IMG/VR virus record: IMGVR_UViG_2737471853_000004
Location: 1-13,716 of that record
Source: a virus
Lineage: Duplodnaviria; Heunggongvirae; Uroviricota; Caudoviricetes
Length of the DNA stretch: 13,716 bases
Direction: 5' to 3' (one strand)
Every line of letters starts with the position of its first letter. Within the stretch, counting starts at the first letter, position 1. Below are positions 1 through 13,716 of the stretch, one piece after another. The notes beneath the pieces are model-generated. The model saw nothing but the letters and a program-made list of their open reading frames with translations, was not told the origin of the DNA and did no database searches. The translations under genes were made by a program, and so were the position numbers.

Positions 1-69
1 AATAAAACCGGCATAGGCCACGCTATTTCATGGCTCTGGTTTTCTCTATTAAGGAGCTTCTGTAATGGC

Positions 70-588
70 TTATTCGATCAGCAATTCAGGCTGCGTTACC
101 TGCATGATGTGCTCATGCTCCACAGCCAGAACACGTTTCTCTTTCTTCCGCTCGTTCATCAACCGGCTGCCGATCGTGCCCTTCAACTTTGACCGCGTTT
201 CTTTGATGGCGTAGCGGTGCTGCATTTCTTCTCCCATCGCCATGCGTCGGCTTAGCTGCTCGGCCATCCAGTTAAAGGCATTGATGTAGCACTCCTTTAC
301 TGCGGCAGCTGTTTTTCCAGTGAACCCCATCACGAGCATCATGCATCCATCGCGTGTGATGTTATACATGGGCTGAACATCGCCATTTTTATCAATGAAA
401 TCAATGGGCGCAAAATTGCGCAGGGTGAAGTCGTCGGAGCATTTCAGGTTACGTATGGCGCGCAAAACGTCTTTGTGTCGCTTGCCAAAGTAGTCAGCCA
501 CCTTGAGTGATGTCGTGATTATCTTGTTGTCGAGGGTCGTGACCATTTCGCGGAAGTCGAAGGCCGGAATAACTGACGGATTATTCAT
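70..588 (-). CDS. rha: Rha-family phage regulatory protein (antirepressor-like)
   Basis: Translation contains TTSLKVADYFGKRHKDVLRAI and LVMGFTGKTAAAVKECYINAFN, which fit the Phage_pRha family as I recall it. Start trimmed to the Met of MNNPSVIPAF (ATG at 586-588); the longer ORF-track extension runs through the upstream terminator hairpin. Confidence 0.6.
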   Translation of the reverse strand: MNNPSVIPAFDFREMVTTLDNKIITTSLKVADYFGKRHKDVLRAIRNLKCSDDFTLRNFAPIDFIDKNGDVQPMYNITRDGCMMLVMGFTGKTAAAVKECYINAFNWMAEQLSRRMAMGEEMQHRYAIKETRSKLKGTIGSRLMNERKKEKRVLAVEHEHIMQVTQPELLIE

Positions 589-730
589 AGCGTCTTTACC
601 TTTTAGAAAGTGAGCCTGTCTCACAGAAAAGCCGCCCGAGAGAGGTCGCCACCTATAACGGCATTTCTCAGGCTCGCTTACTGAAAGGCTCTCGTTAATA
701 TGCGCGTGAGATGCGCTGTGAAATTCAGAT

Positions 731-755
731 ATAAAAAAGCCCCGCATCGCGAGGC
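731..755 (-). terminator. Candidate intrinsic terminator downstream of Rz
   Basis: On the minus strand, GCCUCGC-GAU-GCGGGGC (7 bp stem with one G-U, 3-nt loop) is followed by UUUUUUAUAU. The loop is tight, so confidence is moderate. Confidence 0.4.
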
Positions 756-787
756 TCATTAAATGGACTTTGTGATTTGCAAAAAAA

Positions 788-1225
788 TTATTTCAGGCAT
801 TGCGTCCTGATGTACTCCTGCAGGTAGTTAACCTGCGCGGTTATCCTGTCGATTCCACTTCGGAGACGGTAATAATTGAGTTCAGCATCTGCTGTAAGTC
901 CTGGGCTTTCTCCATCGCCCATGCCGCTGGCTCCGGTCGTTGACTTTGCACAGGTGGCGGCGACTTGCAGGCGCTTACGACCAGCAGAAACATCAGCACG
1001 GAGACTTTCGATAGTCGCGTTAGCATCAGCAAGCTCCTTTGTGTATCTGGCGTCGAGTTCTGCTACATCACGTTGACGCTTCTGCATGTCAGCGATGATG
1101 GATGTGGCTTTATCACGCTGATCTTTGTAGGCGATGGCGTTATCACGGTAATGATTAACAGCCCATGACAGACAGACGATGATGCAGATAACCAGAGCGG
1201 AGATAATCGCGGTGACTCTGCTCAT
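788..1225 (-). CDS. Rz: Rz-type i-spanin
   Basis: N-terminus [31 protein letters not shown] matches lambda Rz as I recall it; the remainder is diverged. Overlaps the R stop and sits directly after the endolysin, as in lambda. Confidence 0.85.
841..1032 (-). CDS. Rz1: Rz1-type o-spanin embedded in Rz in an alternative frame
   Basis: ORF lies wholly inside Rz. It has a lipoprotein-like signal with lipobox VSAC followed by a Pro-rich stretch ([13 protein letters not shown]), the typical architecture of embedded Rz1 genes. Confidence 0.7.
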
Positions 1226-1698
1226 ACCTCAATCTCTCTGACCGTTCCGCCTGCTTCTTTGAATTTTGCAATCAGGCTGTCAGCCTTATGCTCGAACTGA
1301 CCATAACCAGCACCCGGCAGTGAAGCCCAGATATTGCTGCAACGGTCGATTGCCTGACGGATATCACCACGATCAATCATCGGCAAAGCGCCACGCTCCT
1401 TAATCTGCTGCAATGCCACAGCATCCTGGCTTTTCGGAGAGAAGTCTTTCAGGCCAAGCTGCTTACGGTAGGCATCCCACCAACGGGAAAGAAGCTGGTA
1501 GCGTCCGGCGGCTGTTGATTTGAGTTTGGGGTTTAGCGTGACAAGTTTGCGAGGGTGATCGGAGTAATCAGTGAATAGCTCTCCTCCTACAATGACGTCA
1601 TAACCATGATTTCTGGTTTTCTGACGTCCGTTATCAGTTCCCTCTGACCACGCCAGCATATCGAGGAACGCCTTACGTTGATTATTGATTTCCACCAT
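1222..1698 (-). CDS. R: Endolysin R (lambda-type lytic transglycosylase)
   Basis: The 158-aa translation [39 protein letters not shown]... is recognisable as lambda R essentially along its whole length. Confidence 0.9.
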
Positions 1699-2005
1699 CT
1701 TCTACTCCGGCTTTTTTAGCAGCGAAGCGTTTGATAAGCGAACCAATCGAGTCAGTACCGATGTAGCCGATGAACACGCTCGTTATATAAGCGAGATTGC
1801 TACTTAGTCCGGCGAAGTCGAGAAGGTCACGAATGAACCAGGCGATAATGGCGCACATCGTTGCGTCGATTACTGTTTTTGTAAACGCACCGCCATTATA
1901 TCTGCCGCGAAGGTACGCCATTGCAAACGCAAGGATTGCCCCGATGCCTTGTTCCTTTGCCGCGAGAATGGCGGCTAACAGGTCATGTTTTTCTGGCATC
2001 TTCAT
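1682..2005 (-). CDS. S: Holin S (S107/S105 dual-start)
   Basis: 107 aa beginning [20 protein letters not shown] with the dual-start Met-Lys-Met motif. The upstream CCCCTTATTGGGG hairpin (sdi-like) and RBS match the lambda S leader. Confidence 0.9.
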
Positions 2006-2247
2006 GTCTTAGCCCCAATAAGGGGATTTGCTCTATTTAATTAGGAATAAGGTCGATTACTGATAGAACAAATCCAGGCTACTGTGTTTAGTAATCAGAT
2101 TTGTTCGTGACCGATATGCACGGGCAAAACGGCAGGAGGTTGTTAGCGCGACCTCTTGCCACCCGCTTTCACGAAGGTCATGTGTAGAAGTCCGCAGCGT
2201 AACTATCACTGATGAATTCAGGATAGCCAGTGGCTACGGCTCAGTTA

Positions 2248-2323
2248 TGGTGCTGTTTAACGGACTTGAACCGCTACCCATTCGCTTACAAGGCGACCGC
2301 TCTACCATTGGAGCTAAAACAGC
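2248..2323 (-). tRNA. tRNA-like gene, anticodon UGU by hand folding (Thr)
   Basis: The minus strand reads GCTGTTT-TA-GCTC-CAATGGTA-GAGC-G-GTCGC-CTTGTAA-GCGAA-TGGGT-AGCGG-TTCAAGT-CCGTT-AAACAGC-A-CCA. It has a 7-bp acceptor stem, a canonical D arm, a GGTTCAAGTCC T arm and an encoded CCA. The anticodon stem has one mismatch, so the isotype call is tentative. Confidence 0.55.
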
Positions 2324-2328
2324 ATGTT

Positions 2329-2403
2329 TGGCGGGACAGCGTGGACTCGAACCACGATAAGAAGGTTAACAGCCTTCCGTAATCACCTTTATACGACTGA
2401 CCC
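2329..2403 (-). tRNA. tRNA-like gene, anticodon GUU by hand folding (Asn); possibly degenerate
   Basis: The minus strand reads GGGTCAG-TC-GTAT...TTAC-G-GAAGG-CTGTTAA-CCTTC-TTAT-CGTGG-TTCGAGT-CCACG-CTGTCCC-G-CCA. T arm and anticodon arm are perfect and CCA is encoded. The acceptor stem has one T-T mismatch and the D stem is only 3 bp. Confidence 0.5.
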
Positions 2404-2466
2404 AAATAAAAAAAGCCACCGTTGCAACTTAAGAGTCACTAACGGCAGCTTACCTTCTAATTATGG

Positions 2467-2985
2467 CTAAATGGATAATTGCATGTCAAGGCTTTTAACA
2501 GCAACATGCTTAACTTTCTCAACACGTTTACGCATTTTGAAAGCATTTTGCATTGGCTGGTACAAAACAAATAACGATGCTTTCAGGATGTCGTCAATTT
2601 CGTTTCTACAGGTTGCCAGTGAAGGTTTTCTCCATCCCTCGCCACCACGTCCACACATCTTGCGTGGCTTTGCAGTCGCGTGATAGTAGGATGCAATTGC
2701 TCGCTTAGATGAACCATGAGCGTAGTAGCTGAGGAGGATGCCAAAGGCTTTTTTGTCAATGTACATGACGGAATCGACGACCTGAGAAATCAACATTCCA
2801 TCATCATCATTGCACATTGGCCTTGTCATAACTCTTCCCGGCTCTACGCTCTCCATGAACTTCGCTATTACGCTGCTCATGCGCTTTTCCAGACGACCTG
2901 AATAAACCCATGCGCCCCACAGTTCAAGCCAGCCATTCAGCCACTCGTGCTGCTCTTTGGTGAGGTTTAGTTCTCTTATGCCCAC
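2467..2985 (-). CDS. Late-gene antiterminator Q, non-lambda Q family
   Basis: 172 aa at the Q position between the nin region and the lysis cassette. Contains LELWGAWV and [13 protein letters not shown], which resemble the WGAW and Cys/Asp-rich motifs I recall from 933W-type Q proteins. It is not lambda Q. Confidence 0.65.
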
Positions 2986-3647
2986 GCGCCTTCTCCCTGT
3001 ACCTGAATCAATGTGAGGTTTCCGCAGAACACTGCGCCGGTATCGATATACATCTGGTTGGCAAACTTGAGTGGTTTCACTGCTGGCGTATGACCAAAGA
3101 TGAACGTGTCAGCTCCTTTGATTTCTTTCACGATCCCGTCTTGTGAGTTGCTGATTCGTTCGCGGTTCCAGATTACCTGCTGATGATCAACTGGCTTTCC
3201 AAATTCGTATTCGTCACAAGGATAATCGGCGTGGCAGATGACATATTTTTTACCTTCGCTCACCAGTTCGATGATTAACGGAAGTTCATCTGCTTTATGG
3301 GCAAGAGCTTTAGCCAGAATTTCTTTGTCGTAATCGAGATTAAAGAACCAGCCACCGCCATTAAACAGCCAGTGATTGACGTTTCCACGCTCTGATAAGC
3401 CATCAATCATCATTTGCTCATGGTTTCCACGTACAGCTCGGAACCAGGGGAATGTGATTAATTCCAGACATTCGACGTTCTCTGTACCGCGATCGACCAA
3501 ATCGCCAACCGAGATAAGCAGGTCTTTTTTGGTGTCGAATCCCATCGTCTCCAGTTTTTTCATCAGGTTCGTGTAGCATCCGTGCAGATCGCCAACTACC
3601 CAAATATTTCGGTATTTGCTGCCATCAATTTTTTCGTAATAGCGCAT
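2976..3647 (-). CDS. ninI: Ser/Thr protein phosphatase (lambda PP, NinI)
   Basis: [29 protein letters not shown]...GNHE carries the metallophosphatase GDxHG/GDxxDRG/GNHE motifs and is near-identical to lambda PP as I recall it. Start trimmed to MRYYEK (ATG 3645-3647). Confidence 0.9.
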
Positions 3648-3831
3648 CTCTTTCACTCCATCCGCGATGAACCATGAGAACGTCGTTGACGATGGCGTGC
3701 ATTTTCCCGTCTTTATCATCAACGTATTTTCTGACCGTACCGCGACTACATTTCAGTCTGCGTGCTACTTCTGTCTGGTTTCCGTATGCTTCAACGAGCA
3801 TGTCTGGAATGGTTTTTACTGAGAACGTCAT
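3625..3831 (-). CDS. ninH: NinH (small HTH protein)
   Basis: 68 aa [37 protein letters not shown]... matches lambda NinH. Its ATG overlaps the ninG stop as ATGA. Confidence 0.85.
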
Positions 3832-4439
3832 GCGGCCTCACTTCTGCTATTTCGCAGGTCTTTGAGTTTCTGTTGGTACTCTGCCTTGATCGCCTTGCAC
3901 TCTTCGATAGTCCAGCGATGGCGGCTATGGTTTGATTCGATTTCGTCTACTGCTTCCTGCCCTATGCGATTAATCAGTTCGACGCGATACGGAACGAGAT
4001 TTCCGCTTTTATGCTGGTTGCACACCACGCATTGCTTGTGAATATTGCGTTCATCAAATCGGAGTTGAGGTGCCGCAGCAGTTGTCCGGTAATGTCCGGC
4101 ATCCCACTGAGCAGACGTGAGCGTTCCGCACGAGATACATGGTAAGTCGCGGTCTCTTTCTCTGATGAAGGCGTTTACGGCTTGCTGGGCTTGTTTAATC
4201 CAGTAACTGCGGGGCTTTAAGGCGAGTTTTCGAATCTTCAGTTTATCTTTCTGTTTCTGCTCCTCTCGTCGTCGTTTCTTCTCTGCTGCTTTTTCCGCTT
4301 TTTCGCGTTCTTTGCTTCGTCGTTCGAGTGCTATCTTTGTTCCACACTCTGGAGAGCACCACCACTGATTAGCGAATGCAGGGTGAAACCATTCCCGACA
4401 TTCATCGTTTTTACATCGTCTTCGCGCTGGTTTAGCCAT
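3828..4439 (-). CDS. ninG: NinG / Rap recombination endonuclease
   Basis: 203 aa [33 protein letters not shown]... with Cys-rich clusters, matching lambda NinG (Rap). Confidence 0.9.
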
Positions 4440-4608
4440 CGTCTTCTTCCTCGTACATTGAGCTATTCGGATCGCTCATCAGTTCTGCGAAGCAGTGCTC
4501 ACACACGTGAACTTCCAGCACATGCAGCTTCTGACCGCAGTTAGCGCACGTTAAAGCCCGCTCGACGCTTTCTTTCTGGTATTGGAGGGATTGGGATGGG
4601 CTAAGCAT
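4432..4608 (-). CDS. ninF: NinF
   Basis: Not in the ORF track (58 aa). Hand translation of the minus strand gives [58 protein letters not shown], matching lambda NinF. Its stop overlaps the ninG ATG (ATGGCTAA). Confidence 0.8.
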
Positions 4609-4960
4609 TATTGGCGTCCTGCATCATGAGAAAGACAATCATGGCGGCGCGGAGGGAATTTTCATGTATAGCTCGCTTAGATTTACAGTCGGCCACACCA
4701 CGTGCACCCCACTCGTCTTCATCGAGATTGATAATGCTAATCCTGTACTTCTCAATAATCGGCCATGAGGCGCTAGGATCATTGCAGTAGTCAGGTAAAG
4801 GGTTTAATGGCTCAAAAGTTGTATCAGCATTTCCGTAATACCATTTGTTGGTGTTATTCCCTGATGTTTCCGGTTTACATGCCCAAAGGCCTTTAAAAAT
4901 TATGTCTCCTACCATTCTGTTAATTTCAAAATCACTTAACTGTGAATAATCCATTGTCAT
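4601..4960 (-). CDS. Hypothetical protein between ninE and ninF (NinX-like position)
   Basis: ORF occupies the slot where P22-like nin regions carry ninX; lambda has no gene here. Start is ambiguous: the ATG at 4958-4960 overlaps the ninE stop as ATGA, while the ATG at 4952-4954 has GAGGAA about 7 nt upstream. No catalytic motif recognised. Confidence 0.5.
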
Positions 4961-5133
4961 TTCCTCGCACGATGTCTTAGCCACCGGATATCCCACAGGT
5001 GAGCCGTGTAGTTGAAGGTTTTTACGTCAGATTCTTTTGGGATTGGCTTGCGTTTATTTCTGGAGCGTTTCGTTGGAAGGTATTTGCAGTTTTCGCAGAT
5101 GATGTCGGTGATACTTCGTCGCTGTCGTCTCAT
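4957..5133 (-). CDS. ninE: NinE
   Basis: [52 protein letters not shown]... matches lambda NinE. Start trimmed to MRRQRR (ATG 5131-5133), overlapping the methylase stop. Confidence 0.8.
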
Positions 5134-5657
5134 GCCGTCCTCCTGACGCCCTGCCCGATCGCCATCAATGCCGCTTTGGATACGGTAGTAAACATCCGTC
5201 GAGGACTGATGAACGGTCGCCAAATCAGCAGCATTGAGCCTTTGCTGTTTCCCTTCTTCTCCAGCCCCGTCGATGGTTCGATAAAATTAATCCGTCCATC
5301 AGTGATGATGCGAACTTCGTCAACGCTCTCCAGAGCCTTGCTGAACCATCCGACTGACATATCCTCTGGCACAAGCATCACTACCGTCTGTCGCTGTTGT
5401 ATGCACTGCTCAGCGGCTTTTTCTACCCACGGCCTGATATTGCTGTACGGTGGGTTATTCCAGATTGCACCGTGGCTTACCCACTCAGAATTGAGCGCGT
5501 CGTCGGCCTCAGTTAACCAGTGAGCGCACAGAGCATTTTTGTCGCTCGCTGCCGAATCCAGCCAGAATCCAAACTCAATATCCAGTGCATCAAAAAGCCA
5601 AAGCGGCGTTTGCCAGCAGTCCTTGTCGTGTGCTGGCGTATTTGATTTGATAGTCAT
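5130..5657 (-). CDS. Phage DNA N6-adenine methyltransferase (Dam-like, orphan)
   Basis: Contains the NPPY catalytic motif (IWNNPPYS) and a [12 protein letters not shown]-terminal region typical of the phage N6-adenine methylase family. Start trimmed to MTIKSN (ATG 5655-5657), overlapping the ninB stop. It sits where lambda has ninC/ninD. Confidence 0.8.
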
Positions 5658-6094
5658 GCAGCCCGATCTCCCCATCGCGCTTTCCATTCGAGAGCCAGTC
5701 GCGCTTCGTCTGACCACTTAACGCCACGCTCTGTACCGAATGCCTGTATAAGCTCTAATAGCTCCGCAAATTCGCTTACACGCATCCTGCTGGTTGACTG
5801 GCCTATTACCACAAAGCCATTCCCGGCAAGGTTAGGAACAACGTCCTGCTGCTTTAATGCAGCTGTAAAAACGCACTTCCAGCTTTCTGCATCCAGCCAG
5901 CGACCATGCCATTCAACCTGACGAGAGACGTCACCAAGGCAAGCCCAAAGCTTTCGATTCTGGTCTAAGCTGCGGTTGCGTTCCTGAATGGTTACTACGA
6001 TTGGTTTGGTTGGGTCTGGAAGGATTTGCTGTACTGCGTGAATAGCATTTTGCTGAAGTTCTGGAGATCGAATTTCAAAGGTCAGTTTTTTCAT
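5654..6094 (-). CDS. ninB: NinB (Orf recombination mediator)
   Basis: MKKLTFEIRSPELQQNAIHAVQQILPDPTKPIVVTIQERNRSLDQNRKLWACLGDVSRQ... is near-identical to lambda NinB. Start trimmed to MKKLTF (ATG 6092-6094) with GAGGGAAG upstream; the ORF-track extension begins at a TTG. Confidence 0.9.
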   Translation of the reverse strand: MKKLTFEIRSPELQQNAIHAVQQILPDPTKPIVVTIQERNRSLDQNRKLWACLGDVSRQVEWHGRWLDAESWKCVFTAALKQQDVVPNLAGNGFVVIGQSTSRMRVSEFAELLELIQAFGTERGVKWSDEARLALEWKARWGDRAA

Positions 6095-6110
6095 GACTTC
6101 CCTCTCCCCC

Positions 6111-6142
6111 AAATAAAAAGGCCTGCGATTACCAGCAGGCCT
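6111..6142 (-). terminator. Intrinsic terminator between ren and ninB (tR2-like)
   Basis: On the minus strand, AGGCCUGC-ugguaauc-GCAGGCCU (perfect 8-bp GC-rich stem, 8-nt loop) is followed by UUUUAUUU. The position matches lambda tR2. Confidence 0.6.
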
Positions 6143-6167
6143 GTTATTAGCTCAGTGATGTAGATAG

Positions 6168-6458
6168 TCATTGCCTTACCTCCATAAGCGCCCTATTAAT
6201 AAACGCCGTCATTGGATTTGCACATCCCCACCCCGTACCATCTTGATTTCTTTTAATTGGCTCCTTCTTCACTTTGCGTTTTGCATAAATAACCGTCTTC
6301 CACTTACGCTCAACAACACTCAAATGTCCTTGTTTCACCATATGCCTTGCTGCTTGAGCGATTCTGTTATTTGGTATTCCGGTGATCAGTGCTAATTCAT
6401 GTGGGGAGAATTGTTCATGAGTTTTCAGATATTCCAGGATGATTTCTTTTCCAGTCAC
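6168..6458 (-). CDS. ren: Ren-like protein
   Basis: 96 aa starting MTGKEIILEYLKTHEQFSPHELALITG, similar in its N-terminus, length and position to lambda Ren. The start codon appears to be GTG (6456-6458) with AGGAG 6 nt upstream, overlapping the DnaC-like stop. Confidence 0.65.
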   Translation of the reverse strand: MTGKEIILEYLKTHEQFSPHELALITGIPNNRIAQAARHMVKQGHLSVVERKWKTVIYAKRKVKKEPIKRNQDGTGWGCANPMTAFINRALMEVRQ

Positions 6459-7300
6459 GATCTGCTCCTGTAACTATCCCATGTAAACGCAAGAGTGCAC
6501 CCGCCGCCATCATTCATCCTGTCAATAACACGCTCACCAATGAATGCAGACAGTTCATCTTTGCTCTGGTTGCTAATCAGGATTGTTGGCTTCATGCGCT
6601 CGTAGCGGGTGTTGATGATTTCGAACATGATCATCTTTTCCGCCTCGCTTCCAAACTGCACACCAACCTCATCGATAATTAGCAGGTCAGGTTTAGTGAA
6701 CTGTCGGATCACTTCATCCTCTGTGCGGGTGGAGTTTTTCGACCATGTTGATTTATATTCTCTGGCAATTTTCAGCGCCGTTGTGAAAATAGCTGAGCTT
6801 TGATGTTCCGTAATTGCGTGCCGGGCGATAGCCAGTGCAAGATGATTCTTTCCAGTACCAGGCTTTCCACACATAACCAGCCCACCGCCTTTCTGTAACC
6901 TCTCAGGCCATTTGCTGGCGTATGCCTGACACACCCTGAGCACTCTCTTTGCATCGTCGTTGACTGGCTCGTAGTTCTGTAGTGTGCAACCCTTGAATCG
7001 TTCAGGAATATCAAGATTATTCAACAGAAACTCGACATTGCGCTTACGTGATTCCTCGTCGATTTTAATCTTCTCTGCCTGTAGCCGAATAAGCTCATCT
7101 CTCATGCATTCCGGGCATTCGCTAGGTCTTGAGGCAAACTTAATTGGCCCAGTCGAGTAACGGTTACGCTGCTCAAACTCACCATGTTTTTCACAGATGC
7201 CAGTGCCAATTTCTACAGATGTATGCTCGATAGCAATTGGCGGAGAACTCAATTCTGCAAGTTTTTTCTCCAGTTGGGAGATCTTTTCATCCAGCGTCAT
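6455..7300 (-). CDS. DnaC-like replicative helicase loader (AAA+ ATPase)
   Basis: Walker A GKPGTGKNHLA, Walker B LLIIDEVG, and an N-terminal Cys-rich region. Start trimmed to MTLDEK (ATG 7298-7300) with AGGAG 5 nt upstream. It occupies the lambda P position. Confidence 0.85.
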   Translation of the reverse strand: MTLDEKISQLEKKLAELSSPPIAIEHTSVEIGTGICEKHGEFEQRNRYSTGPIKFASRPSECPECMRDELIRLQAEKIKIDEESRKRNVEFLLNNLDIPERFKGCTLQNYEPVNDDAKRVLRVCQAYASKWPERLQKGGGLVMCGKPGTGKNHLALAIARHAITEHQSSAIFTTALKIAREYKSTWSKNSTRTEDEVIRQFTKPDLLIIDEVGVQFGSEAEKMIMFEIINTRYERMKPTILISNQSKDELSAFIGERVIDRMNDGGGCTLAFTWDSYRSRS

Positions 7301-7302
7301 GT

Positions 7303-8145
7303 TCACTCCTGCGCCCATGAAGGCATTTCAGTTTGTCCGTAATCTTTGGTGGCAAAGTTTTCCTGCATAGCTCGATGCTGCGGCCTCGGTTGAGATTTCC
7401 CCTTTGGAGTCTTGGGCTCAAAAATCCCCTGCCAACCACTGGCGATGCTCTGGTTTATAATTTCTTCAGGTGTATATCCCTTCTCCAGACTTCTGCTTAG
7501 AACGTTGATAGCCTGAGTGACGCTTTGCTTAGACTTGATCGACTTACCTATCTCCTTACGATAGGTAACCCACGACAACCATGTTTCTGCTGATAACCAA
7601 TCAGGCAACTCTGTTTCTAGCGGGTCGAACTTCTGAGAAACTTTTTTGGGGGATATAGGGGGTTTATTAATATTTTCTTTTGTCTTTAAAGAATGTCTTT
7701 TGTGTGTCTCTAACTTCGAGACATTGAGTGTCTCTAATTTGGAGACATTTTTTGTCTCTAACTTCGAGACAAAGTTGCTAACTTGGAGACACTTGCTGAA
7801 TTGCCACGCAGATACCTCCCTGTTTACACCGATTTGATTTCCATCCATAAACAGGCAATTCATTGAAATCAGTTCTTTTTTAGCCTTGTTAACATTCTGC
7901 CTTGATAGTCCTGTTAACTGAGCAATTTGCTCATCGGCTATTCGATCTGTTTTCTTATTGAATCCATATGTTTTCCGGACGTAGGCCAGCATAACTTTCA
8001 ACTGGCGAGCGGTTAAATCGGCACTTGCGATAGCTTCCAGCAGCTCGTTAGCGAATCTGGTGTAACCATCATCGATATCAGCCACTCTTCGCTCCTGTTC
8101 AACAGGTTCACTCTTCGGCAGGTAAAATACTTCAGCCAGGCTCAT
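7303..8145 (-). CDS. O: Replication initiator O-like protein (origin-binding N-domain, non-lambda C-domain)
   Basis: The N-terminal region DDGYTRFANELLEAIASADLTARQLKVMLAYVRKTYGFNKKTDRI parallels the lambda O N-domain. The central VSKLET repeats are encoded by the iterons. Start chosen at MSLAEV (ATG 8143-8145) with GGAGG 6 nt upstream. Confidence 0.8.
   Translation of the reverse strand: MSLAEVFYLPKSEPVEQERRVADIDDGYTRFANELLEAIASADLTARQLKVMLAYVRKTYGFNKKTDRIADEQIAQLTGLSRQNVNKAKKELISMNCLFMDGNQIGVNREVSAWQFSKCLQVSNFVSKLETKNVSKLETLNVSKLETHKRHSLKTKENINKPPISPKKVSQKFDPLETELPDWLSAETWLSWVTYRKEIGKSIKSKQSVTQAINVLSRSLEKGYTPEEIINQSIASGWQGIFEPKTPKGKSQPRPQHRAMQENFATKDYGQTEMPSWAQE
7705..7791. repeat. Replication-origin iterons, four about 19-bp inverted-symmetry repeats at 24-bp spacing
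   Basis: TGTCTCTAACTTCGAGACA at 7705-7723, TGTCTCTAATTTGGAGACA at 7729-7747, TGTCTCTAACTTCGAGACA at 7753-7771, and TTGCTAACTTGGAGACA at 7775-7791. An AT-rich tract at 7640-7700 flanks them on the side downstream in the O reading direction, the same arrangement as lambda ori inside O. Confidence 0.75.
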
Positions 8146-8776
8146 TTCCAACCTCCGCATCAAAGCATTGGGCTTCAAGAGACTTAACCATCACCACACT
8201 GCCATCTGTATTAATAACTATCGATGAGTTATATTTGCTTATCAGTTGCTTCGCGTAATCAATTCCGGCGCGAATAAGGAAATTTTTCACCGCAGGAAGA
8301 TGACCAACTACACTACCCAGACCTTGCTCTATAAGCTCCTCATTAAGATCAAGCTCATTTTCATGGCGAAAAGAAATGAATGAGTCGTAAATTGCGTATT
8401 CTGCCGTCTCGCCATTTCTTTCAGGGCCAACCAGCGCCCTTATTTCATTTAGAGATTCATAAAGATCATTATCTTCAAGCTTGAAAAACTCTCGATTATC
8501 ACTAAGCCTCTCTTTTGCAAAGGCTTTATGAATAAGTTTTTCATCTGATGCGGGATTATTTGAATGAAAGGCTGCTATCACCTTAAATGGCTTAGGAACG
8601 CCAGTAGAGGCTGAAATTTCTTTAGCCCTAACTTCTGGTGAATGCTTAGTCATCCCAATCTTATAAATTCCCGGCATGCACTCATTCGAAAGCACATAAA
8701 CAAAGCCATTTGATTTAAAATCATCTGGCACCTTCATGCTCTTCAGAACCTGGAATTTGTCATTTTCGTATGTCAT
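8132..8776 (-). CDS. T5orf172 / GIY-YIG-like domain protein, function unknown
   Basis: GFVYVLSNECMPGIYKIGMTKHSPEVRAKEI...KLIHKAFAKERLSDNREFFK fits the T5orf172 motif pattern as I recall it. AGGAG lies 5 nt upstream of the ATG. It is inserted between cII and O, where lambda has no gene, and its last 14 nt overlap the O start. Confidence 0.5.
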   Translation of the reverse strand: MTYENDKFQVLKSMKVPDDFKSNGFVYVLSNECMPGIYKIGMTKHSPEVRAKEISASTGVPKPFKVIAAFHSNNPASDEKLIHKAFAKERLSDNREFFKLEDNDLYESLNEIRALVGPERNGETAEYAIYDSFISFRHENELDLNEELIEQGLGSVVGHLPAVKNFLIRAGIDYAKQLISKYNSSIVINTDGSVVMVKSLEAQCFDAEVGNEPG

Positions 8777-8810
8777 AATTACTCCTGTGGATTGATCCAG
8801 TCTTTCTACA

Positions 8811-9089
8811 TCAGGCCTCGAAGAATTCGCCGTTCTTCGGGGCTTTTTCTTTTGTCAGCATTCTGGCTACTTTCTTAGCCAGTTCAGCCAACTCCTCGTC
8901 TTCAACACCCCATTCAAGAACAGCCAGAAGCATGGCCATCTTTGGGATAAAGCTGTCTTTCCATCGCGAAATTTGCGATTCATTGATCCCTAATGCATCA
9001 GCAACCTTTCGCTGACCACGTACAGCAATTCGATTCAGGATGTTGCTTGTAATTGCATTCGCTTTCTTGCGAGTACTTGTAAGTTGCAT
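8811..9089 (-). CDS. cII: CII-like transcriptional activator
   Basis: MQLTSTRKKANAITSNILNRIAVRGQRKVADALGINESQISRWKDSFIPKMAMLLAVLEWGV parallels lambda CII (SQISRWK and MLLAVLEWGV conserved), though the protein is diverged. The upstream leader TTGTTATCTAAGGAAATACTTACATATG is the lambda cII leader. Start trimmed to this ATG (9087-9089). Confidence 0.8.
   Translation of the reverse strand: MQLTSTRKKANAITSNILNRIAVRGQRKVADALGINESQISRWKDSFIPKMAMLLAVLEWGVEDEELAELAKKVARMLTKEKAPKNGEFFEA
8814..8853 (+). terminator. Intrinsic terminator antisense to the cII 3' end (oop-like)
   Basis: Plus strand CCUCGAAGAA-uucgccg-UUCUUCGGGG (10-bp stem with one G-U, 7-nt loop) followed by CUUUUUCUUUU. It lies antisense to the cII 3' end, as the oop terminator does in lambda. 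Confidence 0.6.
9043..9056 (+). promoter_or_regulatory. Candidate CII-binding site TTGC-N6-TTGC (PRE-like)
   Basis: TTGCTTGTAATTGC on the plus strand, inside the cII N-terminal coding region and oriented toward cro and cI. The tetrad repeat is perfect, but the -10 is not clear and the spacing to the cII ATG differs from lambda. Confidence 0.4.
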
Positions 9090-9168
9090 ATGTAAGTATT
9101 TCCTTAGATAACAATTGATTGAATGTATGCAAATAAATGCATACACCATAGGTGTGGTTTAATTTGAT

Positions 9169-9200
9169 GCCCTTTTTCAGGGCTGGGATGTGTAAGAGCG
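9169..9200 (-). promoter_or_regulatory. nutR (boxA and boxB)
   Basis: The minus strand reads CGCTCTTACACAT (boxA, 9188-9200) and GCCCTGAAAAAGGGC (boxB, 9169-9183), between cro and cII. Confidence 0.8.
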
Positions 9201-9207
9201 GGGTTAT

Positions 9208-9417
<210 letters not shown>

Positions 9418-9432
9418 TTAGTACATGCAACT

Positions 9433-9502
9433 ATTATCACCGCTAGAGGTAAAATAGTCAACACGCACGGTGTTAGATATTTATCCCTTGCGGTGATAGA
9501 TT
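9433..9502. promoter_or_regulatory. Right operator OR1-OR2-OR3 with divergent promoters PR and PRM
   Basis: OR1 at 9435-9451 (TATCACCGCTAGAGGTA), OR2 at 9459-9475 (CAACACGCACGGTGTTA), OR3 at 9482-9498 (TATCCCTTGCGGTGATA). PR -35 TTGACT and -10 GATAAT are on the minus strand; PRM -10 TAGATT is at 9497-9502 ahead of the cI ATG at 9509. Confidence 0.9.
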
Positions 9503-9505
9503 TAA

Positions 9506-10222
<717 letters not shown>

Positions 10223-10253
10223 TTGTTTTATTTTTCACGTAATAGGATGATTT

Positions 10254-11015
10254 ATGACACAGTTTCAACTTGCATTAATCGCTAGAGAAGTTGATGGAGA
10301 AGTCATCCATCTTCGCACCAAAGACGGATACATCAATGCCACCGCGATGTGCAAGTCTGCGGGGAAGCTACTTGCTGACTATACACGACTAAAAACAACA
10401 CAAGATTTTTTTGATGAATTATCACGCGATATGGGGATTCCCATATCGGAGTTAATTCAATCATTTAAAGGCGGAAGAGCAGAGAATCAAGGGACTTGGG
10501 TTCATCCAGACATCGCAATTAATTTAGCTCAGTGGCTATCTCCAAAATTTGCAGTGCAAGTATCGAGATGGGTGCGTGAGTGGATGTCAGGTGAAAGAGC
10601 GCCTGCCGAACTCCCTATCCACCTTAAGCGGTATATGACAAACCGAGGCAGAGTTCCTCATACGCACTTTTCTATGCTTAATGAACTGACGTTTAACTTG
10701 GTTGCGCCACTTGAACAGGCCGGATATACGCTGCCAGAAAAAATGGTCCCTGATATTTCAGAGGGTAGGGTTTTCTCGCAATGGCTCCGTGACAACCGGG
10801 GGGTTGAGCCGAAGACATTCCCAACATATAACCATGAGTACCCAGATGGCCGGACATTCCCGGTACGTCTATACCCAAACGAATATCTTGCAGATTTCAA
10901 ACAACACTTCAACGAAGTGTGGCTGCCTCAGTACGCTCCTAAATATTTTGCTGAACGAGACCAAAGGGCATTGACGTTGATTGAGAAAATCATGCTACCT
11001 GACCTTGATTCCTAA
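10254..11015 (+). CDS. KilA-N domain protein in the rexAB position (candidate BstA-like abortive-infection protein)
   Basis: The N-terminal roughly 110 aa (GEVIHLRTKDGYINATAMCKSAGK...GTWVHPDIAINLAQWLSPKFAVQVSRWV) fit the KilA-N fold pattern; the C-terminal roughly 140 aa are unassigned. The gene starts 31 nt after the cI stop on the same strand and is followed by a terminator. Confidence 0.6.
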   Translation: MTQFQLALIAREVDGEVIHLRTKDGYINATAMCKSAGKLLADYTRLKTTQDFFDELSRDMGIPISELIQSFKGGRAENQGTWVHPDIAINLAQWLSPKFAVQVSRWVREWMSGERAPAELPIHLKRYMTNRGRVPHTHFSMLNELTFNLVAPLEQAGYTLPEKMVPDISEGRVFSQWLRDNRGVEPKTFPTYNHEYPDGRTFPVRLYPNEYLADFKQHFNEVWLPQYAPKYFAERDQRALTLIEKIMLPDLDS

Positions 11016-11021
11016 ATGTTA

Positions 11022-11046
11022 TTCCCGGCCAAGAGCCGGGTTTTCT
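11022..11046 (+). terminator. Intrinsic terminator ending the cI / KilA-N transcription unit
   Basis: CCCGGC-caaga-GCCGGG (6-bp GC stem, 5-nt loop) followed by TTTTCTTT, 7 nt after the stop codon. Confidence 0.6.
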
Positions 11047-11204
11047 TTGCCTCACGATCCCCCTCACCCAAGAACACATAACCAATTGTATTTATTTGAA
11101 AATTAATAGATACAACTCACTAAACATCGCAATTCAGATCTCTCGATCACCTTCCCAATCCACACAACCCTGCAAAGAATAAATCTATATAAAAACATAC
11201 AGAT

Positions 11205-11267
11205 AACCATCTGCGGTGATAAATTATCTCTGGCGGTGTTGACATAAATACCACTGGCGGTGATACT
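11205..11267 (+). promoter_or_regulatory. Left operator OL3-OL2-OL1 with promoter PL
   Basis: OL3 AACCATCTGCGGTGATA at 11205-11221, OL2 TATCTCTGGCGGTGTTG at 11225-11241, OL1 TACCACTGGCGGTGATA at 11249-11265. PL -35 TTGACA at 11239-11244 and -10 GATACT at 11262-11267, reading toward N. Confidence 0.9.
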
Positions 11268-11307
11268 AAGCACATCAGCAGGATGCACTGACCACCATTG
11301 AAGGTGA

Positions 11308-11338
11308 GGCTCTTAAAAATTTAGCCCTGAAGAAGGGC
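11308..11338 (+). promoter_or_regulatory. nutL (boxA-like and boxB)
   Basis: boxB GCCCTGAAGAAGGGC at 11324-11338 is preceded by GGCTCTTAAAAA (boxA-like, with a first-base difference from the CGCTCTTA consensus). Confidence 0.8.
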
Positions 11339-11448
11339 AGCATTCAAAGCAGAAAGCTTTGAGTAGCGCGAAATGCAGCTGCAAGACAGCAACCGTGGAG
11401 ATAAGCATCACGGCGCGTTACTCAAAGCTAACTGACAGGAGAATCCAG

Positions 11449-11775
11449 ATGGATGCACAAACACGCCGCCGCGAACGTCGCGCAGAGAAACAGGCTCAAT
11501 GGAAAGCAGCAAATCCCCTGTTGGTTGGGGTAAGCGCAAAACCAGTTAACCGCCCTATTCTCTCGCCGAATCGCAAACCGAAATCACGAGTAGAAAGCGC
11601 ACTGAATCCGATAGACCTTACGGTGCTGGCTGAATACCACGAACAGATTGAAAGCAACCTGCAACGTATTGAGCGCAAGAATCAGCGCACATGGTACAGC
11701 AAGCCACGCAGTGAAATGGGTGTGACTTGTGTTGGTCGCCAGAAAATGAAATTAGGCAGCAAACCACTTATTTGA
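11449..11775 (+). CDS. N: Antiterminator N
   Basis: MDAQTRRRERRAEKQAQWKAANPLLVGVSAKPVNRPIL..., with the arginine-rich boxB-binding motif; lambda N-like but diverged toward the C-terminus. Start trimmed to the ATG at 11449 with a GGAG RBS. Confidence 0.9.
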   Translation: MDAQTRRRERRAEKQAQWKAANPLLVGVSAKPVNRPILSPNRKPKSRVESALNPIDLTVLAEYHEQIESNLQRIERKNQRTWYSKPRSEMGVTCVGRQKMKLGSKPLI

Positions 11776-11785
11776 GGACTGATAC

Positions 11786-12028
11786 ATGAGAGTAAAAACT
11801 ATGGGCGCAAGCCCATTAAGTGGTCGTATTTTTCAAGGAACATTAAACACTGAAAAAGGAATGTGGGTGGGAAAGAAAGAAGATGTAACCGAACAGGCAG
11901 TTAAGGCAGTAGCTGAACACATGATGATAAAAGACCAGAAATATGCATACGAAACGAAGGATGGCAAATGGCTGATAATAAGTCATCAAATAGTTGATAA
12001 ATTACCAGAAGAGTTTATTGCTGATTAA
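11786..12028 (+). CDS. Hypothetical 80-aa protein immediately downstream of N
   Basis: GAGGA lies 7 nt upstream of the ATG, 11 nt after the N stop. No family recognised. It occupies the region where lambda carries ral and sieB. Confidence 0.5.
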   Translation: MRVKTMGASPLSGRIFQGTLNTEKGMWVGKKEDVTEQAVKAVAEHMMIKDQKYAYETKDGKWLIISHQIVDKLPEEFIAD

Positions 12029-12156
12029 AATTATTTTGGCATAAACAACAGAATAAACACTGCACTGTGTATTCATTCCAACGAGTGAATACACGGAGCA
12101 ATGTCGCTCGTAACTAAACAGGAGCCGACTTGTTCTGATTATTGGAAATCTTCTTT

Positions 12157-12183
12157 GCCCTCCAGTGTGAGGGCGATTTTTTA
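12157..12183 (+). terminator. Intrinsic terminator (tL2-like) upstream of ea10
   Basis: GCCCTC-cagtgt-GAGGGC (6-bp stem) followed by GATTTTTTAT. Confidence 0.55.
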
Positions 12184-12202
12184 TCTATGAGGATATGAAT
12201 AG

Positions 12203-12571
12203 ATGTCAAACATCAAAAAATACATCATTGATTACGACTGGAAAGCATCAATAGAAATTGAAATCGACCATGACGTAATGACAGAGGAAAAACTTCACCA
12301 GATTAATAATTTCTGGTCAGACTCTGAATACCGACTCAATAAACACGGCTCTGTATTAAATGCTGTATTAATCATGCTGGCGCAACATGCTCTGCTTATA
12401 GCAATTTCAAGCGACTTAAATGCATATGGTGTTGTGTGTGAGTTCGACTGGAATGATGGAAATGGTCAGGAAGGATGGCCTCCAATGGATGGTAGCGAAG
12501 GAATAAGAATTACCGATATCGATACATCAGGAATATTTGATTCAGATGATATGACTATCAAAGCCGCCTGA
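12203..12571 (+). CDS. ea10: Ea10-like protein
   Basis: 122 aa MSNIKKYIIDYDWKASIEIEIDHDVMTEEKLHQINNFW... with an acidic C-terminus. I recall it as lambda Ea10, and the position upstream of cIII agrees. Confidence 0.7.
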   Translation: MSNIKKYIIDYDWKASIEIEIDHDVMTEEKLHQINNFWSDSEYRLNKHGSVLNAVLIMLAQHALLIAISSDLNAYGVVCEFDWNDGNGQEGWPPMDGSEGIRITDIDTSGIFDSDDMTIKAA

Positions 12572-12594
12572 GCGCAGCGTTACCGCATACCAAT

Positions 12595-12620
12595 AACGCT
12601 TCACTCGAGGCGTTTTTCGT
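12595..12620 (+). terminator. Candidate hairpin plus U-tract between ea10 and cIII
   Basis: AACGCUUC-acuc-GAGGCGUU (8-bp stem with one G-U) followed by UUUCGUUAU. The U-tract is interrupted, so this may be an attenuator or RNA-processing structure rather than a full terminator. Confidence 0.35.
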
Positions 12621-12643
12621 TATGTATAAATAAGGAGCACACC

Positions 12644-12808
12644 ATGCAATATGCCATTGCAGGGTGGCCTGTTGCTGGCTGCCCTTCCGAATCTTTACTT
12701 GAACGAATCACCCGTAAATTACGTGACGGATGGAAACGCCTTATCGACATACTTAATCAGCCAGGAGTCCCAAAAAATGGATCAAACACTTATGGCTATC
12801 CAGACTAA
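12644..12808 (+). CDS. cIII: CIII (FtsH inhibitor)
   Basis: Not listed separately in the ORF track. Hand translation from the ATG at 12644 (AAGGAG RBS) gives [54 protein letters not shown], which is lambda CIII. Confidence 0.85.
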   Translation: MQYAIAGWPVAGCPSESLLERITRKLRDGWKRLIDILNQPGVPKNGSNTYGYPD

Positions 12809-12920
12809 ATTCACTATCGCCACTTTTATTGGCGATGAAAAGATGTTTCGTGAGGCCGTCGACGCTTATAAAAAATGGATATTAATACTGAAACTGAGAT
12901 CAAGCAAAAGCATTCACTAA
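12777..12920 (+). CDS. kil: Kil (host-killing, FtsZ inhibitor)
   Basis: [47 protein letters not shown] (47 aa) matches lambda Kil. It overlaps the cIII 3' end in another frame, as in lambda. Confidence 0.8.
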
Positions 12921-13027
12921 TCCCCTTTCCTGTTTTCCTAATCAGCCTGGCATTTCGCGGGCGATATTTTCACAGCCATTTTCAGGAGTTCAGCCATGAA
13001 CGCTTATTACATTCAGGATCGTCTTGA
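12875..13027 (+). other. Short ORF encoding a Gam-long N-terminal-like peptide, out of frame with gam
   Basis: Hand translation gives [50 protein letters not shown]. Its first roughly 35 aa resemble the N-terminal extension of lambda GamL, but the frame diverges just before the Gam ATG. Confidence 0.35.
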
Positions 13028-13292
13028 GGCTCAGAGCTGGGCGCGTCACTACCAGCAGATCGCCCGTGAAGAGAAAGAGGCAGAACTGGCAGACGACCTG
13101 GAAAAGGGTCTGCCCCAGCATTTGTTTGAATCGCTATGCATCGATCATTTGCAACGCCACGGGGTCAGCAAAAAAGCCATTACCCGTGCGTTCGATGACG
13201 ATGTTGAGTTTCAGGAGCGCATGGCAGAACACATCCGGTACATGGTTGAAACCATTGCTCACCACCAGGTTGATATTGATTCAGAGGTATAA
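12996..13292 (+). CDS. gam: Gam (RecBCD inhibitor), short GamS form
   Basis: 98 aa [56 protein letters not shown]... matches lambda GamS. GGAG RBS upstream. Confidence 0.9.
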
Positions 13293-13297
13293 AACGG

Positions 13298-13716
13298 ATG
13301 AGTACAGCACTCGCAACGCTGGCTGGGAAGCTGGCTGAACGTGTCGGCATGGATTCTGTCGACCCACAGGAACTGATCACCACTCTTCGCCAGACGGCAT
13401 TTAAAGGTGATGCCAGCGATGCGCAGTTCATCGCATTGTTGATCGTCGCCAACCAGTACGGCCTTAATCCGTGGACGAAAGAAATTTACGCCTTCCCTGA
13501 TAAGCAGAACGGCATCGTTCCGGTGGTGGGCGTTGATGGCTGGTCCCGCATCATCAATGAAAACCAGCAGTTTGATGGCATGGACTTTGAGCAGGACAAT
13601 GAATCCTGCACATGCCGGATTTACCGCAAGGACCGTAATCATCCGATCTGCGTTACCGAGTGGATGGATGAATGCCGCCGCGAACCATTCAAAACCCGCG
13701 AAGGCAGAGAAATCAC
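13298..13716 (+). CDS. bet: Bet (Red-beta single-strand annealing protein), 3'-truncated by window end
   Basis: Hand translation from the ATG at 13298 gives MSTALATLAGKLAERVGMDSVDPQELITTLRQTAFKGDASDAQFIALLIVANQYGLNPWTKEIYAFPDKQNG..., which is lambda Bet. The ORF runs off the end of the window. Confidence 0.9.
   Translation, partial: MSTALATLAGKLAERVGMDSVDPQELITTLRQTAFKGDASDAQFIALLIVANQYGLNPWTKEIYAFPDKQNGIVPVVGVDGWSRIINENQQFDGMDFEQDNESCTCRIYRKDRNHPICVTEWMDECRREPFKTREGREI

Follow-up and report, generated by a model that had tools for sequence, protein, structure and literature searches.

A DUF7446-family cassette gene immediately downstream of N in a lambda-immunity lambdoid phage or prophage

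The 13,716 nucleotides of IMG/VR virus record IMGVR_UViG_2737471853_000004 (Caudoviricetes; positions 1 to 13,716, here called the window) belong to a lambda-immunity lambdoid phage or prophage in which transcription from the early-left promoter PL runs on the plus strand. The gene order is PL, the nutL boxB, the antiterminator gene N, an open reading frame (ORF) of 80 codons with an ATG start and a TAA stop, ea10 and cIII. The window holds 98 ORFs of at least 40 amino acids (aa), and an earlier note on the sequence had singled out this one, just after N with GAGGA 7 nt upstream of its start, at coordinates that are correct. We conclude that it is almost certainly a genuine cassette gene of the DUF7446 family, and we propose, as a tentative first choice among several functions, that its product is a non-enzymatic binding protein of the lytic cycle with a counter-defence or host-takeover role.

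The earlier note had recognised no family for the ORF, a view overturned by profile hidden Markov model (HMM) searches. DUF7446 (PF24233) is the sole Pfam match of the protein (100.2 bits against a cutoff of 24.1, E = 5.6e-29), with residues 4–72 aligned to positions 2–70 of the 70-position profile, a full-length match. PHROG 1578, a group of no known function, was matched with E = 1e-40, and an NCBIfam search with the protein gave nothing. An identical protein is already in RefSeq (WP_001264184.1, 'DUF7446 family protein'), encoded directly after N in Escherichia coli FDAARGOS_944; the gene is thus a catalogued and typical member of its family, differing from it in nothing and carrying every residue conserved across it.

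All 29 homologues that were aligned, with identities down to 40%, match DUF7446, and 16 residues are invariant among them. The ratio of nonsynonymous to synonymous substitution rates (dN/dS) is 0.11–0.33 against five homologues at 93–98% amino-acid identity; against an 81%-identical Salmonella copy dN is 0.095 and synonymous sites are saturated (34.5 differences over 46 sites). The protein is under purifying selection. A chance ORF or a decaying remnant without function, for which only the small size speaks, is therefore a negligible prospect and can be regarded as refuted by HMM matches with E from 1e-29 to 1e-41, conservation across distant phage groups, dN/dS far below 1 and a confidently predicted fold. 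The conservation in related phages that the earlier note had named as the mark of a real gene is present.

Pairwise alignment with lambda places the ORF in a mosaic substitution. Near-identity extends from the N ribosome-binding site to 11705, inside the 3' end of N, and identity resumes 3 nt past the ORF stop codon, at 12031. Opposite the divergent 325 bp lambda has about 1.03 kb, comprising the last N codons, sieB on the opposite strand, orf28 and ral, so that the ORF lies within a true substitution; the proposal that it replaces the ral/sieB region of lambda is borne out, the sieB/orf28/ral segment being absent. The final 23 codons of N (11706–11772; ...PRSEMGVTCVGRQKMKLGSKPLI) are unlike those of lambda N and form part of the substituted module. 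The C-terminal part of lambda N contacts RNA polymerase. Three E. coli prophages likewise have this variant 3' end of N directly 5' of their DUF7446 gene.

The 3' boundary of the substitution is marked by a linker, TTATTTTGGCATAAACAACAGA, that comes after ral in lambda and after the DUF7446 gene in the window. With small differences it also comes after the DUF7446 gene in an E. coli prophage (L001), in the P22-like phage SE1 (L002) and in two further prophages (L014 and L017). At loci with ral upstream, the post-ral sequence GTGGCCTTTATTTTT immediately precedes the DUF7446 ribosome-binding site. These shared linkers are boundaries of the kind at which lambdoid cassettes are exchanged. The DUF7446 gene is a self-contained, swappable cassette between conserved linkers and, together with the variant 3' end of N, displaces sieB, orf28 and ral by recombination. 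A second, small mosaic patch lies 5' of N, where the leader from boxB to the N ribosome-binding site (plus strand, approximately 11345–11410) is shorter than and different from that of lambda, flanked by a boxB and an N coding start identical to lambda. In the E. coli FDAARGOS_944 prophage with the identical N-plus-DUF7446 module (L001), an inserted IS4 separates the repressor gene from N, and IS600 lies past cIII (3961–5307 and 6567–7723); that copy is probably defective.

The Shine–Dalgarno sequence of the ORF overlaps the N stop codon (TGA, 11773–11775), an arrangement kept in the E. coli prophage copies. A promoter scan 5' of the ORF found no promoter-like site except PL, whose sequence is common to the window and lambda, and a scan for intrinsic terminators between PL and the ORF, including the gap between N and the ORF, found none. 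From these scans we infer that the ORF is co-transcribed with N from PL and, there being no other promoter, that it should be silent in the lysogen; PL is repressed in lysogens. Since no intrinsic terminator intervenes, the ORF should be carried on the immediate-early N message independently of N antitermination, as judged from the intrinsic-terminator scan alone, Rho-dependent termination not having been assessed. The earlier note had described the ORF as read in the N-antiterminated PL transcript; the transcript shared with N stands, and on the same scan antitermination would not be needed. The terminator that the note had put before ea10 (at 12157–12183) was found again as a hairpin with a T-run, within a nucleotide or two of those limits; its sequence is identical to the lambda site upstream of ea10, and we take it to be the counterpart of lambda tL2a.

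An AlphaFold2 model computed with the 29-sequence alignment has a mean predicted local distance difference test score of 90.2 and a predicted template modelling score of 0.67, with strands at residues 2–8, 15–21 and 26–33, a helix at 35–49 and two further strands at 53–56 and 62–65. Read from the secondary structure, the topology would be that of a small soluble α/β domain (three strands, a helix, two strands), and the protein has no long hydrophobic segment. PDB sequence searches and fold searches found no solved structure matching the model, so that of the HMM and structure-based searches proposed in the earlier note the former delivered a family and the latter no match. A PC4/Sub1-like single-stranded DNA-binding fold was considered and rejected, no significant structural superposition being obtained.

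Conservation, counted over 122 diverse DUF7446 representatives, falls mostly within residues 1–50; the hairpin and tail at the C-terminus vary. Thr35 is present in 121 of the 122, Gly18 in 119, Ile15 in 116, Asp33 in 111, Val34 in 106, Lys31 in 104 (with Arg in 13 more), Ser9 in 102, Pro10 in 99 and Trp27 in 94. Two segments stand out: S9-P-L-T-G13, the loop that joins strands 1 and 2, and K31-x-D33-V-T35, where the helix begins. The window protein follows the family motif G-x-S-P-[LI]-T-G-x-I-[YF]-x-G ... W-x-G-x-K-x-D-V-T ... A-x-x-A-V, with G7, S9, P10, L11, G13, I15, F16, G18, W27, G29, K31, D33, V34, T35, A38, A41 and V42. If the sheet is an antiparallel meander, the S-P-L-T-G loop and K-x-D-V-T would lie at the same sheet end, by the helix N-terminus, an arrangement suggestive of one conserved polar binding pocket. 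The loop, the lysine and the helix N-terminus might instead hold backbone phosphates, in which case the protein would be a nucleic-acid-binding accessory factor for the phage's handling of its own DNA or RNA, in replication, recombination or transcription; this is a less probable alternative to the binding-protein reading.

The family is widely spread among phages. Of 5426 complete E. coli genomes, 45 (0.8%) have close copies, all of them chromosomal; in deposited phage genomes, 95% amino-acid identity is reached only by copies from nine P22-like Salmonella phages in the SE1 group. Every Ackermannviridae record listed, about 160 in number (Kuttervirus and its Klebsiella and Dickeya relatives), has a copy at 50–58% identity, and the gene is carried as well by Serratia phage Eta and by Klebsiella and Salmonella phages of 60 kb. 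When 1.84 billion representative proteins were searched with a profile, 345 DUF7446 clusters were obtained at E ≤ 1e-3; the best 150 of the 345 are mostly stand-alone proteins of 60–100 aa. One branch has as its best match in the phage collection an uncultured phage from human faeces. Only one of 72,556 plasmid records has a DUF7446 match, and the family is phage-restricted and essentially absent from plasmids.

In lambdoid and P22-like elements the DUF7446 gene is always in the early-left operon, between N and cIII or kil, and annotated examples agree. Neighbours were counted at 80 IMG/VR loci. Upstream stand N (18 loci, with gaps of 7–10 or 60 nt), Ral (11 loci, gap of 27 nt) and a 75-aa protein (10 loci); downstream, the commonest neighbour is a P22-orf78-like protein (14 loci), followed by cIII (13 loci). 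No conserved partner gene was found among these loci and the annotated examples; the neighbours vary. In phage contigs of 55–60 kb (L010–L013, at about 4231–4803) the DUF7446 stop codon and the start of an HD_4 ((p)ppGpp-hydrolase-like) gene overlap. Also in this early block are methylase-like, YAcAr, NADAR and ParB-HTH genes, the first three upstream of DUF7446, a cluster that looks nucleotide-centred and counter-defence-like. In Kuttervirus Maynard the gene is one of the small genes that separate the major capsid gene from the tail-tube gene, and two genes downstream of it is a YAcAr gene. In two Salmonella P22-like prophages (L007, at 4330–4914, and L065) the next gene after DUF7446 encodes a pentapeptide-repeat protein; the pentapeptide-repeat fold can mimic DNA. 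Ten longer DUF7446-containing proteins were scanned for other domains, and only DUF551, a zinc ribbon and VIT1 were found (the VIT1 fusion probably being a gene-calling artefact); domain fusions were set aside as a functional hint.

A small binding protein of the lytic cycle fits these observations best because the protein is stand-alone, phage-restricted, immediate-early by prediction, dispensable to lambdoid phages generally, strongly conserved and kept in all of the Ackermannviridae records listed. It would be made together with N, as an immediate-early product, at infection or induction, and would act by itself and non-enzymatically, without a partner gene, on a component of the host, or a molecule derived from it, that is conserved across bacterial phyla. 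The finding of copies always in early or accessory gene runs and the HD_4, NADAR, YAcAr and methylase neighbours count in favour of this reading, as does a precedent for the slot in P22: the P22 record annotates gene 17, which lies in the same N-to-c3 interval, as allowing growth on Fels-2 lysogens, so that one counter-exclusion gene is already known from the slot.

Several points weigh against it. The pocket was deduced from secondary-structure topology alone, and the net charge of the family is approximately zero (median pI 6.9), giving no hint of a ligand; a charge bias marking a DNA mimic or DNA binder had been sought and was discarded on the same neutrality. The Ackermannviridae copy, between capsid and tail-tube genes, does not belong to any obvious early block. 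For arms-race inhibitors, strong purifying selection and presence in every one of the listed records of that family are unusual. A motif search of the supplements of the EVADES catalogue (268 anti-defence proteins) found no DUF7446, nor did one of the files of an accessory-gene screen, which do not seem to include protein sequences, and a literature search found no experiment or paper bearing on the family.

A more specific proposal is that DUF7446 represents an unrecognised class of small counter-defence proteins whose ligand would be derived from a nucleotide (an immune signal or an alarmone, for example) and held by the SPLTG loop, Lys31, Asp33, Thr35 and the helix N-terminus. We consider this unlikely; it draws only on the putative pocket and on two phage groups in which HD_4, NADAR and YAcAr genes are neighbours. 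The family resembles the sponges of immune signals (Tad2, PF11195; Acb4, PF13876; Sequestin, PF21825), whose traits are described in PMC12265669, in being small, stand-alone, phage-restricted and spread over phages of different phyla, with conserved polar residues from which a pocket could be built. However, these are different Pfam families with no sequence relationship to DUF7446, and Sequestin is α-helical (PMC12265669). Fusions among sponge domains are a further trait of the sponge families (PMC12265669), and the absence of any known sponge domain from the ten longer DUF7446 proteins speaks against the proposal.

The earlier note had suggested an anti-restriction function by analogy with ral. 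The DUF7446 gene shares with lambda ral the operon and the 3' cassette boundary, and both encode small early proteins. As a functional analogue of Ral, alleviating type I restriction, it would be expected to have the immediate-early expression predicted here; moreover, its 3' boundary falls exactly at the end of lambda ral, a gene that this phage lacks. These likenesses are not accompanied by sequence or profile similarity: the protein has no match to Pfam Ral (PF11058), BLASTP gives E = 0.089, and hhalign, with a profile of 100 DUF7446 sequences set against one of 23 Ral sequences, gives a probability of 0.18%. Ral has invariant cysteines (C11 and C17, with C20 and C26 nearly invariant), whereas DUF7446 has no conserved cysteine. 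The two genes are, furthermore, often side by side, DUF7446 lying directly 3' of an intact ral in 11 of the 80 loci as well as in phage SE1 and E. coli 04-00955, so that they are not alternatives. Since homology is absent and the two are frequent immediate neighbours, the DUF7446 gene is not an allele or substitute of ral. Anti-restriction genes are common on plasmids, and the near-absence of the family there argues mildly against a general anti-restriction function. A Ral-like function is thus very unlikely; the protein may have a broader counter-defence role.

The second suggestion of the earlier note, superinfection exclusion by analogy with sieB, is likewise not supported. The gene sits in part of the interval that holds sieB and replaces the lambda segment bearing it. 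However, sieB of lambda and P22 is on the opposite strand and encodes approximately 190 aa, with its own annotated promoter in P22, whereas the DUF7446 gene is on the PL strand, with PL as the sole promoter-like site upstream, and would encode a soluble 80-aa α/β domain without a long hydrophobic segment. Membership of the SieB family was rejected on the lack of a lysogen promoter of its own opposite to PL, on the single Pfam match and on length. The family is, moreover, present in virulent phages, the Ackermannviridae, and the only match in PADLOC is a weak one to the DndE model (E = 0.0078). A superinfection-exclusion or other prophage-encoded defence protein is accordingly highly improbable. 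The DndE match is itself probably spurious: the model is matched by 15 of the 29 members, at E values no better than 4e-4 and over its C-terminal half only, and no DndE was found in the Pfam scan of the 29 members (E ≤ 1), in PDB sequence searches or in fold searches. Taken together, these comparisons would make the protein neither a Ral-type enhancer of EcoKI modification nor a SieB-type exclusion protein.

P22 gene 17 and orf78 resemble the DUF7446 gene as interchangeable small early genes of the same N-to-cIII slot, but their translations differ from the DUF7446 protein, as compared by eye and without alignment. Together with orf87, whose translation likewise looks unrelated by eye, they were rejected as homologues.

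The features of the locus are collected in Table 1. We take the hairpin in the nutL region to be boxB by reference to lambda. Between the cassette linker and the terminator lies a strong RNA hairpin that is identical in lambda and retained in several prophages; the region 12030–12200 folds with a z-score of -5.2. The window ea10 matches lambda identically over nearly its whole length. The DUF7446 ORF itself contains ATGGGCGCAAGCCCAT, a perfect palindrome of 6 bp around a GCAA loop that is terminator-like on the minus strand; it is lost in more distant homologues and was rejected as a conserved RNA element, being probably a by-product of the M-G-A-S-P-L codons. An Rfam scan returned only the lambda cIII thermoregulator element, at the start of cIII.

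Table 1. Features of the early-left region and adjoining immunity region of the window.
Feature	Position	Strand	Evidence
cI-like repressor gene	9509–10222		
BstA-like gene, 253 aa	10254–11015	+	Pfam KilA-N, PADLOC BstA
PL promoter, TTGACA / 17 nt / GATACT	11239–11267	+	Promoter scan, 10/12 matches
nutL boxB hairpin GCCCTGAAGAAGGGC	11324–11338	+	Direct sequence reading; hairpin flagged in scan
Antiterminator N, 108 aa	11449–11775	+	Pfam N36, E = 1.5e-26
Mosaic substitution (variant N C-terminus and DUF7446 gene), 325 bp	11706–12030	+	Alignment with lambda, lambda annotation
Shine–Dalgarno GAGGA of DUF7446 ORF	11774–11778	+	Sequence; 7-nt spacer to ATG
DUF7446-family gene, 80 aa	11786–12028	+	Pfam PF24233, PHROG 1578, RefSeq identity, dN/dS, AlphaFold2
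Palindrome within DUF7446 ORF	11801–11816		
Conserved intergenic linker, cassette boundary	12031–12052	+	Flank comparison
Strong intergenic RNA hairpin, 14-bp core stem	12061–12100	+	
Intrinsic terminator (hairpin and T-run)	12155–12184	+	Terminator scan; first 3' of PL
ea10 (DUF2528), next gene 3' of DUF7446 ORF	12203–12571	+	Pfam DUF2528, E = 1.8e-47
cIII thermoregulator RNA element	12631–12689	+	Rfam RF01804, 88.5 bits
cIII	12644–12808		

Elsewhere in the window, the gene directly downstream of the cI-like repressor gene occupies the position of rexA/rexB in lambda. In its 253-aa product a KilA-N domain lies at the N-terminus (Pfam E = 8e-27) and the PADLOC BstA model is matched at the C-terminus (E = 2.5e-20), by which this immunity-region gene is classed, from sequence, as BstA-like, for abortive-infection defence.

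For this phage, the outcome fills an annotation gap left by the first reading of the sequence, and the locus is a clear but ordinary example of lambdoid cassette exchange at conserved linkers. The window offers no better handle on the function of DUF7446 than any other member of the family, for which the literature search gave no papers and no structure has been solved. Were the binding of a nucleotide-derived signal to prove true, it would explain the spread of the family over uncultured human-gut phages, Ackermannviridae and lambdoid prophages, as well as its HD_4, NADAR and YAcAr neighbours. The family is widespread, strongly conserved and uncharacterised, and assigning its function would annotate many phage genomes at once.
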